Source: a virus (taxonomy: Duplodnaviria > Heunggongvirae > Uroviricota > Caudoviricetes). From it: a DNA stretch of 47,041 nt. Position numbers and translations under genes: made by a program. The notes beneath the pieces were generated by a model. It searched no databases and was not told the DNA's origin. It worked only from the letters and a program-made list of their open reading frames with translations. Positions 32,263 through 42,930 of the stretch are shown here, piece after piece (position 1 is the first letter of the stretch; each line of letters starts with the position of its first letter). The stretch lies in the IMG/VR virus record IMGVR_UViG_2541047923_000007, one strand, 5' to 3'.

Positions 32263-32339
32263 TGGCGCGCTGTACTGGATTCGAACCAGTGACCGATTGC
32301 TTAGAAGGCAATTGCTCTGTCCGGCTGAGCTAACAACGC
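32263..32339 (-). tRNA. tRNA-Arg (anticodon UCU)
   Basis: Cloverleaf read by eye: acceptor GCGTTGT, anticodon loop CUUCUAA, T-loop GTTCGAATC, 3' CCA. Confidence 0.8.
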
Positions 32340-32439: not shown

Positions 32440-32515
32440 TGGTGGCCCTTGCTGGATTTGAACCAGCGACCTGGCGATTATGAGTCGCTCGCTCTCACCA
32501 CTGAGCTAAAGGGCC
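32440..32515 (-). tRNA. tRNA-Ile2 (anticodon CAU, ileX/ileZ-like; Met-type anticodon)
   Basis: Near-identical to remembered E. coli ileX; anticodon loop CUCAUAA; 3' CCA. Confidence 0.85.
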
Positions 32516-35511: not shown

Positions 35512-35640
35512 CAGAATCCTTCCGGATAATTAGCTCTCCCCTTTAAGGGACCATCCCTCTTATCCCTGCGCGCTACTTAAGTATTTTTGATTCTATTCCG
35601 GCACCGTCCAGAACTTCAAACGCGTTGAAAATAAAAACAA

Positions 35641-35665
35641 AAACCCGCCGAAGCGGGTTAAGTGC
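35641..35665 (-). terminator. Rho-independent terminator of the hok transcript
   Basis: Minus-strand AACCCGC-uucg-GCGGGUU followed by UUUUGUUUUU. Confidence 0.6.
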
Positions 35666-35727
35666 GGGTGCGTTGAGGATGCCTGCCACATCAGAGGTGG
35701 CGAGGGATTTCTCCCTCGCCGGGTCTC

Positions 35728-35883
35728 TTACTCCTCAGGTTCGTAAGCTGTGAAGACAGCGACCTCCGTCTGCCCGGTTCGGATTCGTACCTCGCAGAGG
35801 TCTTTCCTCGTTACCAGTGCCGTCACTATGACGGTTAAACAGATGACGATCAGGGCGATTAACATCGCCTTTTGCTGCTTCAT
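35728..35883 (-). CDS. hokD: Hok-family type I toxin
   Basis: 51 aa MKQQKAMLIALIVICLTVIVTALVTRKDLCEVRIRTGQTEVAVFTAYEPEE matches remembered HokD; overlapping upstream mok-like frame extends to 35940. Confidence 0.85.
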   Translation of the reverse strand: MKQQKAMLIALIVICLTVIVTALVTRKDLCEVRIRTGQTEVAVFTAYEPEE

Positions 35884-36119
35884 AGCCTGCTTCTCCTTGC
35901 CTTTCGGCACGTAAGAGGCTAACCTACATGTGTCTAGCATGAAATTGGCCTCAGATTAATGTTAAGCGTCTTGCAGGACGCGTAATGTTAACTGGGGCTT
36001 TTCTCTATCTGCCGTTGGTGTTCATGCCCGAGGCAGATAGCCTCAAGCACCCGCAGCAATTTTACTTAACTCCCGCTACCTCGCCAATATGAAATCAATA
36101 AGAAAGGTGCTCCATAAAA

Positions 36120-36806
36120 TCACTCCTTCTCTTCTTTACCGTAGTGGAGTTGACCAATTTTGATAAGAGGGCGTCCCTGAGATTTGCGGTGTAGATTGGT
36201 ATCGCGCAGAGAATACACACAGCCACAATATTCCTGCTGATAGAATTTTTCGCGCTTGCTGATTTCAATCATGCGGGACGAGCCGCCCTGCTTGCGCCAG
36301 TTATAATCCCAGTACACCATGCCCGGATAATGCGCGACGGCTCGCCGCCCACAGTCGTTAACCTGCTGCATATTTTTCCAGCGTGAAATGCCCAGTGAAC
36401 TGCTGATCACACTGAAACCATTTTCAGCAGCGTACAGCGCTGTCCGCTCAAAACGCATGTCAAAACACATGGTACAACGGATCCCCCTCTCGGGCTCCCA
36501 TTCCATTCCTTTGGCACGTTCAAACCAGTTGTCTGTGTCGTAATCAGCATCAATAAATGGCACGCCGTGTTGTTCAGCAAAGCGAATATTCTCATCCTTA
36601 CGAATTAAATACTCTTTCTGAGGATGAATGTTCGGGTTGTAGAAAAAGATGGTATAGTCGATTCCCGAGGCCTGAAGCGCCTCCATCACTTCACCGGAAC
36701 ATGGAGCACAGCAAGAGTGCAGTAGTAGTTTGTTTGCCCCGTTTGGGAGCTCCAATTTAGGCCGTTTGAAATCAGCAATAGTCATAAATATTTTTATTGG
36801 GGTCAT
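36120..36806 (-). CDS. DUF208 protein, epoxyqueuosine reductase QueH-like
   Basis: 228 aa with N-terminal [11 protein letters not shown] and C-terminal [11 protein letters not shown] cysteine motifs, as remembered for the QueH family. Confidence 0.5.
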
Positions 36807-36969
36807 GAAAATAGCACAGAGTGTAGCATCAGAGCAGGGCTATCGGGAATAGATGTCTAAATCTGGTAATATCTGCTTTTGACACAAAGCAGACAACCAC
36901 GCTAGCTCAATCCTGTGCCGTGAAAATGTCAATTCACATCTGAACTAATGCTCTTTAATCGAGTAACGT

Positions 36970-37386
36970 CTATAAATAACGAAAATTTCTCTGATAAAAT
37001 GCCAGTATGCGCTGCATAACTTCGCTCTTCCGGCACTCACAGCAAATTATGTTTTGGTGCCTGTCATAACGACGTATTTCTCCGTCAGGTAATGACCAGA
37101 TAAGGTCCGGATCAACCACAGATGGTTTCTTCACCTTTGCCCTAGATAGTTTTTTGCGGGCATTTTGCCAGTCCTTACGAGCCTGTTCAGACGGGAATAA
37201 CCCGTAGCCAGAGTTGTATACATCGCCACTGGCAACCAGCTCTCTGGCGAGAACGCTCATCAGATATCTTGTCGCACCTGTCTTGGCTTCCAGTTGCCGT
37301 AACGTCTCGCGCCCACTCCGGCGTACTAGCTCAACAACCTGTCCCTTGATTTTTTCCCGCTCTTCTTGTGTAAATACTTTTGCCAT
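36970..37386 (-). CDS. Hypothetical protein
   Basis: ATG at 37384-37386 with GGAGG Shine-Dalgarno; basic C-terminus with a CCEC motif. Confidence 0.5.
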   Translation of the reverse strand: MAKVFTQEEREKIKGQVVELVRRSGRETLRQLEAKTGATRYLMSVLARELVASGDVYNSGYGLFPSEQARKDWQNARKKLSRAKVKKPSVVDPDLIWSLPDGEIRRYDRHQNIICCECRKSEVMQRILAFYQRNFRYL

Positions 37387-37401
37387 AAGCGCCTCCGGCA
37401 A

Positions 37402-41385: not shown

Positions 41386-41541
41386 ATGCAAAAAATCGAC
41401 CTCGGCAATAACGAATCCATGGTGTGCGGCGTGTTCCCCAACCAGGATGGAACGTTCACCGCCATGACTTATACCAAAAGCAAAACATTTAAAACCGAAA
41501 CTGGTGCGCGCCGATGGTTGGAGAAGCACACAGTAAGCTAA
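41386..41541 (+). CDS. YdfB-like small protein (51 aa)
   Basis: ATG at 41386 with GAGGTG upstream; MQKIDLGNNESMVCGVFPNQDGTFTAMTYTKSKTFKTETGARRWLEKHTVS; below the ORF-track cutoff. Confidence 0.5.
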   Translation: MQKIDLGNNESMVCGVFPNQDGTFTAMTYTKSKTFKTETGARRWLEKHTVS

Positions 41542-41966
41542 CGATTAAAACGTCTACTCCTGCTGTTCCAGAATAACTTCATAAAATGGGAGTATTTTTC
41601 GGTGACGAGATAATAAGAACAGTTTGCGCTATCACTCTGATGTTGAATGATGCCCTTCCGTTCTAATTTTTTCATAACCGGGTTACGGCAAGGAGAAGTG
41701 ATAATAAGATTTCCTGTTTTAAGGAAATCTTTAAATACAGCGATTTCTTTCTCAGATAAACGAAGCAATACTCGTTGCTCTGGTAGTAATGAATAATGCT
41801 TTTGAATATGTGCTCGCAATCTTGAGAAGGAAATGGCGACCACGAAAGAAAAGGCAAAAACGATAATCTGAAAGAGCCAAGGTATTTCAGTATAAGCATT
41901 GAATGCGACAGTAAACTCTTTCGGTATCAGCCAGAGAGTGAGACCAAAAATGATAATCGTATACAT
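41538..41966 (-). CDS. Two-TM membrane protein, candidate superinfection-exclusion protein
   Basis: AT-rich ORF reading against the surrounding operon; two N-terminal hydrophobic helices then a soluble domain; ATG at 41964-41966. Confidence 0.5.
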   Translation of the reverse strand: MYTIIIFGLTLWLIPKEFTVAFNAYTEIPWLFQIIVFAFSFVVAISFSRLRAHIQKHYSLLPEQRVLLRLSEKEIAVFKDFLKTGNLIITSPCRNPVMKKLERKGIIQHQSDSANCSYYLVTEKYSHFMKLFWNSRSRRFNR

Positions 41967-42234
41967 AAGTCTTTCGATGTGGCTCGTTAGCAAAAAGTTT
42001 CAACAATGGAGTAAATACATCCAACATATCAATAACTCTCAACTGTAAGGGTATTGAAATGTTAACACAAGCTCTCGCTGTAGGGGTATAGCCGAGACCA
42101 CCGAAGCCCGGAGGTGGTGAAATAAAACTGGGCGCAACACGAAGGCGCATTTCCGATATCCATAAAGAGTCGGTCTTGTCTGTTAAATTTAAATGGTGGG
42201 AGTGCGCCTCCGGTTGTAAATAACGACATTGCTG

Positions 42235-42292
42235 TGTGTAGTCTTGGCGGCATCAGTTTTTTCTTGAAGTTCGGCTGATGTCCGCCCTTTTT
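42235..42292 (+). ncRNA. dicF: DicF-like sRNA with intrinsic terminator
   Basis: TGGCGGCATCAGTTTT...CCGCCCTTTTT resembles remembered K-12 DicF; downstream spacer AAAGTGAATTTTGTGATG matches the remembered dicF-dicB intergenic sequence. Confidence 0.5.
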
Positions 42293-42461
42293 AAAGTGAA
42301 TTTTGTGATGCGGTGAATGCGGCTGAGCGCACGCGGAACAGTTAAAACCAAAAACAGTGTTATGGGTGGATTCTCTGTATCCGGCGTTAATTGTTAACTG
42401 GTTAACGTCACCTGGAGGCACCAGGCACCGCATCACAAAATTCATTGTTGAGGACGCGATA

Positions 42462-42650
42462 ATGGAAACGTTATTACCAAACGTTAATACGTCTGAAGGT
42501 TGTTTTGAAATTGGTGTCACTATCAGTAACCCTGTATTTACTGAAGATGCCATTAACAAGAGAAAACACGAACGGAAGCTATTAAATAAAATATGCATTC
42601 TTTCAATGTTGGCCCGTTTACGTCCGATACAAAAAGGATGCTGGCAATGA
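42462..42650 (+). CDS. dicB: Cell division inhibitor DicB
   Basis: 62 aa METLLPNVNTSEGCFEIGVTISNPVFTEDAINKRK... near-identical to remembered K-12 DicB. Confidence 0.9.
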   Translation: METLLPNVNTSEGCFEIGVTISNPVFTEDAINKRKHERKLLNKICILSMLARLRPIQKGCWQ

Positions 42651-42838
42651 ATACAGCATTTGCACTTGTTCTGACAGTTTTTCTTGTTTCCGGAGAGCCA
42701 GTTGATATTGCAGTCAGTGTTCACAGGACAATGCAGGAGTGTGTGACTGCAGCAACCGAACAGAAAATTCCCGGTAACTGTTACCCGGTCGATAAAGTTA
42801 TTCACCAGGATAATAACGAAATCCCGGCAGGTCTTTAA
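42647..42838 (+). CDS. ydfD: YdfD small lytic membrane protein
   Basis: 63 aa MNTAFALVLTVFLVSGEPVDIAVSVHRTMQEC... matches remembered YdfD; start overlaps the dicB stop (ATGA). Confidence 0.85.
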   Translation: MNTAFALVLTVFLVSGEPVDIAVSVHRTMQECVTAATEQKIPGNCYPVDKVIHQDNNEIPAGL

Positions 42839-42930
42839 AACAGTTCCGTAATAAACATCCGATTTCATTCTTATATGCCAGCAATGGCAGGGATTTGTTC
42901 ACCCTTAAATCTGTAATGAGGTAAAACAAA

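Follow-up and report, generated by a model that had tools for sequence, protein, structure and literature searches.

The window analysed here is a 47,041-nucleotide (nt) stretch of DNA from a virus of the Caudoviricetes (IMG/VR record IMGVR_UViG_2541047923_000007), which has the appearance of a complete lambdoid prophage, and the subject of this study is queH, a gene on its minus strand whose longest open reading frame (ORF; 36120..36806, ATG start) encodes 228 amino acid (aa) residues. We have hardly any doubt that the product belongs to the QueH family of epoxyqueuosine reductases and that its active site is intact. Furthermore, with a probability of roughly 0.6, we consider queH to be an autonomous cargo gene of the lysogen, one that would give the host a cobalamin-independent route from epoxyqueuosine (oQ) to queuosine (Q). 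The family, the reaction it catalyses and the PGAP annotation of the gene are already known and only the phage setting is unusual; no new enzyme or mechanism is revealed by the prophage gene, and a literature search found no paper on phage- or prophage-borne QueH.

Family assignment and active-site residues

The initial annotation had assigned the gene to QueH (DUF208) on the strength of two cysteine motifs in the 228-aa product, HSCCAPC near the N-terminus and YQQEYCGC near the C-terminus, and had proposed a profile search against that family. Both motifs are read from the sequence, and the search returned a match to the Pfam family QueH (PF02677, formerly DUF208) from end to end (profile positions 1–174 of 175) with an E-value of 1.9e-65 and a score of 220.6 bits against a cutoff of 23.5, which is far beyond chance. 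QueH was the sole Pfam match of the product, as no further domain and no homology of the QueG or reductive-dehalogenase type was found by Pfam. When PDB sequences were searched with phmmer, entries of Thermotoga maritima QueH (TmQueH) were the only matches (7LC5, E-value 5e-22, residues 27–203), the identity between the two proteins being about 28–30%. An AlphaFold2 model built from 29 homologues reached moderate confidence (pLDDT 75.8, pTM 0.78), and its comparison with PDB by Foldseek placed TmQueH entries in the top five positions (E-values 3.5e-11 to 1.3e-9; target-normalised TM scores 0.80–0.83), while the next-best folds, those of the adenine-nucleotide-alpha-hydrolase proteins TtuA and LarE, were approximately a million-fold weaker (E-value 5e-5). 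The predicted fold therefore matches the QueH crystal structures best, and the full-length profile match, the similarity to TmQueH and this fold together bear out the family assignment made from the motifs.

Conservation was assessed in a family alignment of the query, TmQueH and 86 diverse full-length representatives from a 50%-identity library, in an alignment of close homologues (A2) and in an alignment of 30 distant sequences with identities down to 35% (A3). The N-terminal HSCCAPCS motif, which would provide metal-ligand cysteines, was invariant in A2 and A3, and its residues C32, C33 and C36 (228-aa numbering, as throughout) align with C9, C10 and D13 of TmQueH, for which mutant entries C9S and D13N (9DCO) are present in the PDB. 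The arginine and both cysteines of the central RCTMC motif were invariant in A3 and were found in 83–86 of the 87 other sequences of the family alignment. Similarly, the glutamine, both cysteines and the glycine of the C-terminal YQQEYCGC motif were invariant in A3, and the motif aligns with the YCGC of TmQueH. In total, the query keeps C32, C33, C36, N57, N59, R110, C111, C114, R118, Q191, C194, G195 and C196, 13 residues whose columns are invariant in A3 and which include all seven cysteines of the CCxx(C/D), CxxC and CxC pattern (C32, C33, C36, C111, C114, C194 and C196); these seven do not vary in A2 either. The likeness to TmQueH (7LC5/7LC7/9DEU) thus extends over the full-length domain, the fold (TM score about 0.8) and the positions of the CC, CxxC and CxC cysteines, and presumably also to the reaction, i.e. 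the conversion of oQ to Q on tRNA without cobalamin. In contrast, the two proteins differ in most of their residues, in their genomic origin (TmQueH is chromosomal, whereas prophage QueH is phage-encoded) and in a C-terminal extension of approximately 25 residues, which is kept in Enterobacterales and which TmQueH lacks.

The true start of the gene is most likely M8, at position 36785, yielding a product of 221 aa, because the ATG of M1 is not conserved and the chromosomal homologues start at the equivalent of M8. The M1 ATG is missing from the Enterobacter, Scandinavium and Kluyvera copies (alignment A1), the ORFs of the chromosomal homologues and the PGAP models all begin at the M8 equivalent, and the PGAP queH models of NCTC9022, 042 and REL606 are 666 nt in length. 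The codons M1 to F7 are probably part of the 5' untranslated region and not coding. The exact 221-aa sequence falls within the cluster 'MULTISPECIES: epoxyqueuosine reductase QueH [Enterobacteriaceae]'.

Origin, leader and carriage of queH

The nearest relatives of the prophage protein outside Escherichia/Shigella are chromosomally encoded in Enterobacter, Scandinavium and Kluyvera (91–93% aa identity), and homologues with 78–93% identity, which carry the NCBI name QueH, are widespread in Enterobacterales. QueH of Enterobacter hormaechei, Scandinavium sp. and Kluyvera ascorbata has the same length and start as the prophage protein, and the genes are preceded by the element TGCTACA(C/A)T at the same upstream distance; their flanks, however, are non-phage, whereas the prophage copy lies in a lambdoid setting. 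Among 80 species-representative loci, the phage neighbours were common only to Escherichia albertii and Shigella flexneri. The other loci lack them, and the flanks that were inspected consist of ordinary chromosomal genes: queH is flanked by purL and a sensor kinase gene (Erwinia), lies near tmcA and purC (Providencia), or is flanked by a lone integrase-family gene and budR-budAB-like genes (E. hormaechei). In the latter species the chromosomal gene (locus L090, 4181–4885) is directly preceded by this lone tyrosine-recombinase gene (Phage_integrase family), which hints that queH itself may reside on a small mobile unit in Enterobacter.

At the nucleotide level, the phage locus is 85%, 84% and 83% identical to those of Scandinavium, E. 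hormaechei and Kluyvera, respectively. Since this homology ends just outside the ORF, reaching at most about 30–65 nt before the start and 4–7 nt beyond the stop, the phage would have taken up the ORF with its leader and hardly anything else. The GC content of queH (about 46–52%) did not differ from that of its surroundings, so that no compositional signature of recent import was seen, and the synonymous divergence (dS) from the nearest chromosomal copies is 0.9–1.9. With synonymous sites nearly saturated, the capture is unlikely to have been very recent. The ratio of nonsynonymous to synonymous divergence (dN/dS, by the method of Nei and Gojobori) was 0.017–0.041 among prophage copies, which differ by one or two aa changes at a dS of 0.09–0.11, and 0.023–0.037 against the nearest chromosomal copies. 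Judged from these sequence comparisons, the phage gene is constrained as strongly as its chromosomal counterparts, and neither relaxed selection nor an altered function is indicated.

In alignment A1 the element TGCTACA(C/A)T does not vary between the phage copies and those of Enterobacter, Scandinavium and Kluyvera; its first base is located 43–44 nt before the ATG, and it reads as an extended −10 sequence (TGn followed by TACACT or TACAAT). A strict −10-like pattern was found 40–52 nt upstream in 25 of 81 queH copies, related TACACT, TAAACT or TATAGT elements were seen in others, and more distant homologues carry −10-like hexamers at similar distances. As an extended −10-like motif is conserved in the short homologous leader, queH probably arrived with a putative promoter of its own. 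Between this candidate promoter and the stop codon of the preceding DUF977 gene, a stem-loop (UAUCUGCUUU...AAAGCAGAUA) with a stem of 10–13 bp is predicted; the minus-strand RNA of 36840–36975 folds with a minimum free energy of −35.6 kcal/mol (z = −2.8 relative to shuffled sequences). The stem-loop has no clear U-run and was not called by the terminator scan, and it may possibly represent a weak terminator, an insulator or a protein site. The leader motif and the hairpin would fit an autonomous transcription unit, albeit without proving it.

A search of the 5426 complete E. coli genomes located the queH nucleotide sequence in 995 (approximately 18%), of which 985 have it in near full-length form, and a single match over at least 80% of a 1.4-kb DUF977-queH-hokD query was obtained in 741 genomes. 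Among the matches listed, every queH bears the PGAP label 'epoxyqueuosine reductase QueH'. The gene of enteroaggregative E. coli (EAEC) 042 is 100% identical and lies in a Rac-type prophage with intR, ralR, recET, kilR and ydaTUV, that of NCTC9022 lies in a Qin-type prophage, and at least one O157:H7 genome also carries queH. Additionally, E. coli B (B-StaR and REL606; NC_012967.1, 1620376–1621041 in the latter) possesses an intact copy, although the Qin prophage of REL606 is decayed, with a frameshifted integrase gene, IS3 insertions and truncated genes. By contrast, queG was present in all 5426 genomes, so that every queH-carrying E. coli also possesses queG, and the E. coli B lineage (REL606 and B-StaR) probably encodes two epoxyqueuosine reductases, unlike K-12. 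The initial annotation had described a QueH-like enzyme in an E. coli prophage as unexpected; this holds as regards its redundancy with QueG and holds less well as regards rarity, given that nearly a fifth of the genomes carry the gene under its proper name.

Among phages, the isolated Escherichia phage HannyBb encodes a QueH with 95.6% aa identity, annotated as 'hypothetical protein', and IMG/VR contains 189 viral contigs with a near-identical protein. A family-wide scan of IMG/VR with a degenerate pattern raised the number of confirmed stretches from these 189 to only 216, and phage-borne QueH therefore looks almost confined to the lambdoid group of E. coli/Shigella and rare elsewhere. In PHROGs the family (phrog_3217) is labelled 'unknown function'; its profile of 188 positions starts at residue 41 of the ORF and thus lacks the CCAPC motif. 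The labels of phrog_3217 and HannyBb represent an annotation gap that could be closed. Two GenBank records of 328–379 kb named 'Acinetobacter phage MD-2021a' (CAKLQH020000001.1 and CAKLQF020000001.1) encode a QueH that shares 78% of its residues with the protein of the E. coli prophage, and were set aside as unreliable evidence of phage carriage. Their size and Enterobacterales-like sequence suggest that they may not be genuine Acinetobacter phages. Weaker tblastn matches in unannotated gut 'Bacteriophage sp.' fragments were likewise discounted.

The position of the gene was surveyed in 80 IMG/VR loci. DUF977 was located 164–167 nt upstream of queH in 76 of these, and in 57 a distance of 228–239 nt separated the queH match from the hokD start downstream of it. 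No hokD match was present in 22 loci, and the 20 of these with at least 800 nt of downstream sequence keep the first ~173 nt downstream of queH. In the sole hokD-less locus that was inspected (L027), the place of hokD and rem is taken by genes for a C5-cytosine methyltransferase and an NgoMIV-family restriction enzyme. Insertions also occur on either side of queH: strain Ec-U9-2 carries Kiwa (KwaA/KwaB) between queH and hokD, a methyltransferase remnant separates DUF977 from queH in E. coli B and HannyBb, and an IS5-type transposase gene occupies the DUF977-queH interval of another locus (L028), with a similar-sized insertion in one further locus. The DUF977-queH-hok module is common to Qin-type (NCTC9022, REL606) and Rac-type (042) prophages and to phage HannyBb. 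As the initial annotation had claimed, the slot is that of relBE in the Qin prophage of K-12, which lacks queH: the order there (NC_000913.3) is rem-hokD-relE-relB, with relBE upstream of hokD-rem-ydfU-ydfT. The two arrangements share their position relative to hokD-rem-ydfU-Q, and differ in that relBE is a type II toxin-antitoxin system while queH encodes a tRNA-modification enzyme, and in that the hok gene of the window keeps a sok region. The kinds of gene that occupy the slot elsewhere are ones that act in lysogens, and queH shows the variable carriage at a variable cargo site that is characteristic of a moron. The interval from DUF977 to rem/DUF968 (35941–36969 of the window) was observed to be a variable cargo site of Rac/Qin-type prophages in general, further loci of the slot being labelled L006, L169, L170 (B-StaR) and L172.

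Proposed role and competing explanations

In the proposed mechanism, the queH product would be a small cobalamin-independent metalloenzyme with an adenine-nucleotide-alpha-hydrolase fold, whose seven cysteines (CCxxC, CxxC and CxC) would, by homology, hold a [4Fe-4S] cluster and an adjacent iron. Li and colleagues are said to have described in 2021 structural details of QueH in which cysteines hold such a cluster and iron. The enzyme would perform the two-electron reduction of the epoxide of oQ34 to the cyclopentene of Q34 on tRNA-Asp, tRNA-Asn, tRNA-His and tRNA-Tyr. Lambdoid phages of the Rac/Qin type would have captured the gene from an Enterobacter-like chromosome, essentially as an ORF with a short leader and its own extended −10 promoter, and queH would now be a self-contained cargo gene ('moron') in an accessory slot that extends from the replication module to hok/sok. 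In the lysogen, it would add a second, B12-independent version of the last step of Q synthesis to that performed by the B12-dependent QueG. Cobalamin is not made de novo by E. coli and, because of this, the additional enzyme would maintain complete Q-tRNA under cobalamin scarcity.

Prophage QueH and QueG (YjeS) are both Fe-S enzymes with the same predicted substrate and product, yet they are not homologous, and in E. coli QueG is core (5426 of 5426 genomes) while QueH is accessory (995 of 5426). The oQ-to-Q step of QueG is given as cobalamin dependent in a passage of PMC4646009 that cites Frey 1988, and the enzyme requires cobalamin and two [4Fe-4S] clusters (PMC4646009, PMC5175355). QueH, on the other hand, is described as depending on iron and as being redundant with QueG in organisms that possess both (PMC9508795, PMC13443448), and in Staphylococcus aureus, which has both enzymes, they are expressed differently, which has been read in terms of cofactor availability (PMC13443448). 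By analogy with this family property (PMC13443448, PMC9508795), the prophage enzyme would be cobalamin independent, and its 91–93% identity to chromosomal QueH together with purifying selection suggests that it converts oQ-tRNA to Q-tRNA.

A number of points weigh against the proposal of a lysogen cargo gene with this activity. No model was matched in an NCBIfam scan of the product, and the PGAP name QueH presumably derives from a rule other than an NCBIfam model. C36 (nt 36699–36701) is a cysteine where TmQueH, the only QueH studied structurally, has Asp13; a cysteine occupies this column in 70 of the 76 non-gap sequences, and on the aligned sequences it is the norm of the family and TmQueH the exception, so that the residue is not a peculiarity of the phage copy. 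On the coding strand upstream of queH, a scan for consensus sigma-70 promoters and terminators made no call, since TGCTACACT has no recognisable −35 and was missed for that reason. The orientation of the gene, which is that of the early rightward operon, would suit an early lytic gene equally well. To our knowledge, no phenotype distinguishes oQ-tRNA from Q-tRNA, and any fitness benefit is thus conjecture. Finally, it is from sequence that we infer enzymatic activity in E. coli, expression in the lysogen, promoter activity and a cobalamin-sparing benefit.

In one alternative, queH belongs to the early genes and serves the phage: expressed from pR in the lytic cycle, it would top up Q34 on host tRNAs independently of host B12, so that phage mRNAs are decoded optimally at NAU/NAC codons. 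Its orientation, its location between the replication and nin/Q genes and its carriage by HannyBb, a viable isolated phage, agree with such a role, and purifying selection among phage copies suits a function at the level of the phage as well as of the host. Nevertheless, we consider an early lytic role unlikely: decayed, non-inducible prophages, Qin of REL606 for instance, still carry the gene in intact form, the promoter element of the chromosomal relatives is kept, and the slot is common to cargo that acts in lysogens (toxin-antitoxin, Kiwa and restriction-modification systems). Moreover, the two tRNAs of the prophage, an Arg(UCU) and a CAU-anticodon tRNA, are not Q-tRNAs, and a short lytic cycle leaves little time for remodelling a stable tRNA pool. 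Preservation in decayed prophages also argues against queH being a redundant passenger, active or inactive, that has hitch-hiked with no measurable benefit beside QueG. The universality of queG in E. coli, the restriction of queH to 18% of genomes and the absence of a known oQ-versus-Q phenotype are all as would be expected of a passenger. This explanation is nonetheless rendered improbable by a dN/dS of about 0.02–0.04 at a dS of about 0.1 among prophage copies, by the near full length of 985 of 995 copies with all catalytic motifs intact, and by the retention of queH while neighbouring prophage genes decay.

The initial annotation had also raised the possibility that the enzyme acts on a deazaguanine-type modification, and a different substrate, such as 7-deazaguanine in phage DNA, was considered, as was a role in defence or counter-defence in view of the defence-rich slot. 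Phages do use 7-deazaguanine DNA modifications (PMC6884629), and the hotspot elsewhere holds Kiwa, a restriction-modification system and toxin-antitoxin modules. However, the phage clusters for such modifications (preQ0/archaeosine, DpdA), which resemble the present case in being phage-borne genes of the queuosine/deazaguanine pathway, combine early-pathway enzymes with a DNA transglycosylase and modify phage DNA, whereas this prophage carries a lone late-pathway, tRNA-specific enzyme without DpdA. No DpdA/TGT or preQ0-synthesis gene was found among the early-region ORFs, in the annotations of related prophages or in that of HannyBb, and neither the prophage nor its annotated relatives contain a QueC/D/E or QueA-like gene. 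Because no DpdA/TGT partner is present, a role in DNA modification is unlikely, and the deazaguanine idea was not sustained. PADLOC (E ≤ 0.01) assigned no family to QueH or its small neighbours, oQ is known as a substrate on tRNA only, and the 91–93% identity to chromosomal QueH under equal constraint gives no sign of neofunctionalisation. Taken as a whole, an alternative substrate or defence role thus appears very improbable. Hutinet et al. (2019) found no homologues of QueA, QueG or QueH in the viruses that they analysed (PMC6884629).

Returning to the lysogen cargo gene, its interpretation as an auxiliary tRNA-modification gene, by which the phage supplies the queuosine-specific last step and renders Q-tRNA maturation of the host B12-independent, is tentative and somewhat doubtful. 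In a more exotic version of it, phage or host would turn the oQ/Q switch to use in a conflict, such as one with anticodon-targeting toxins. Were the auxiliary-gene interpretation true, about one fifth of E. coli strains, the B lineage of REL606 among them, would differ from K-12 in how and when their tRNAs carry Q instead of oQ. If the enzyme is active, E. coli strains would differ in a supposedly uniform housekeeping pathway, as K-12 needs imported cobalamin to finish queuosine, a requirement of which approximately 18% of sequenced strains would be free; EAEC 042, E. coli B (REL606) and at least one O157:H7 genome belong to these. Its activity would also bear on the interpretation of queG mutants, B12-limitation experiments and tRNA-modification profiles in non-K-12 backgrounds. 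Furthermore, an active enzyme would constitute a clean phage example of a late, tRNA-specific queuosine gene, a class reported to be missing from the viruses surveyed in 2019, and would provide a function for PHROG 3217, which phage annotation pipelines currently report as 'unknown function'. The practical consequence is that common non-K-12 strains, E. coli B among them, probably possess two oQ reductases.

Prophage setting and neighbouring genes

Besides lysis genes, the window contains ORFs for tail, head and terminase proteins, and it carries the antiterminator gene Q, RusA, DUF968, rem and hokD, then queH. Beyond queH lie genes for DUF977, DUF1627, an IstB/DnaC-like ATPase, DUF1376 (YdaU-like) and YdaT-like proteins, and the window further holds a helix-turn-helix (HTH) repressor, SieB, an exonuclease and an integrase. 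The placement of queH in the nin region upstream of hokD, as initially annotated, was confirmed, the gene being situated in the nin-equivalent region between the replication genes and Q and oriented as the early rightward genes. Features of the locus and its surroundings are compiled in Table 1.

Table 1. Coordinates of queH, its motifs and leader elements, and selected genes of the window
Feature	Position	Strand	Details
queH coding sequence beginning at the conserved M8	36120..36785	-	221 aa; PF02677, PGAP models, homologue starts
Seven extra N-terminal codons (M1-F7) of the longest ORF	36786..36806	-	M1 ATG unconserved
HSCCAPCS, aa 30-37 (C32, C33, C36)	36696..36719	-	Predicted N-terminal metal-ligand cysteines
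RCTMC, aa 110-114 (R110, C111, C114)	36465..36479	-	Central CxxC
YQQEYCGC, aa 189-196 (C194, G195, C196)	36219..36242	-	C-terminal CGC
TGCTACACT, extended -10-like element, candidate queH promoter	36820..36828	-	First base 43 nt upstream of M8 ATG
Stem-loop between DUF977 stop and putative queH promoter	36865..36898	-	10-13 bp stem
DUF977 (Ren-like) protein gene, last of the replication module, upstream neighbour	36970..37401	-	PF06163, E-value 1.1e-29
hokD toxin gene, downstream neighbour	35728..35883	-	51 aa; ORF and translation
sok regulatory region between queH and hokD	35878..36052	-	Rfam RF01794, 115.3 bits, E-value 6e-27
SieB gene and 268-aa ORF	41538-41993 and 42062-42868	-	

The downstream neighbour, named 'type I toxin-antitoxin system toxin HokD' by PGAP in matching genomes, begins at a distance of 236 nt beyond the queH stop codon. 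The sok match spans the full Rfam model, well above its gathering score of 59, with a promoter-like site just upstream (36087..36059), and the hok/sok-type locus downstream of queH is complete. An ORF of 70 aa that resembles mok overlaps hokD in the hok/sok region (35728–35940, minus strand). In K-12 the gap between relE and hokD amounts to only 71 nt, unlike in the sok-bearing window. Just downstream of hokD there is a weak Rfam match to isrK (35638–35719, minus strand; 25.7 bits, below the gathering score of 50). It overlaps the one hairpin of the region that resembles a terminator (35642–35659), and it may be no more than the 3' end of the hok mRNA or a terminator.

The two prophage tRNA genes are located downstream of Q at 32263–32339 and 32440–32515 (minus strand), and neither tRNA is queuosine-bearing. 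The CAU-anticodon tRNA is assigned to Met by ARAGORN, while PGAP designates the homologous gene of a related prophage as tRNA-Ile. In the immunity-left region, the SieB superinfection-exclusion gene (Pfam E-value 1e-31) adjoins the gene for a 268-aa protein that has no Pfam match.

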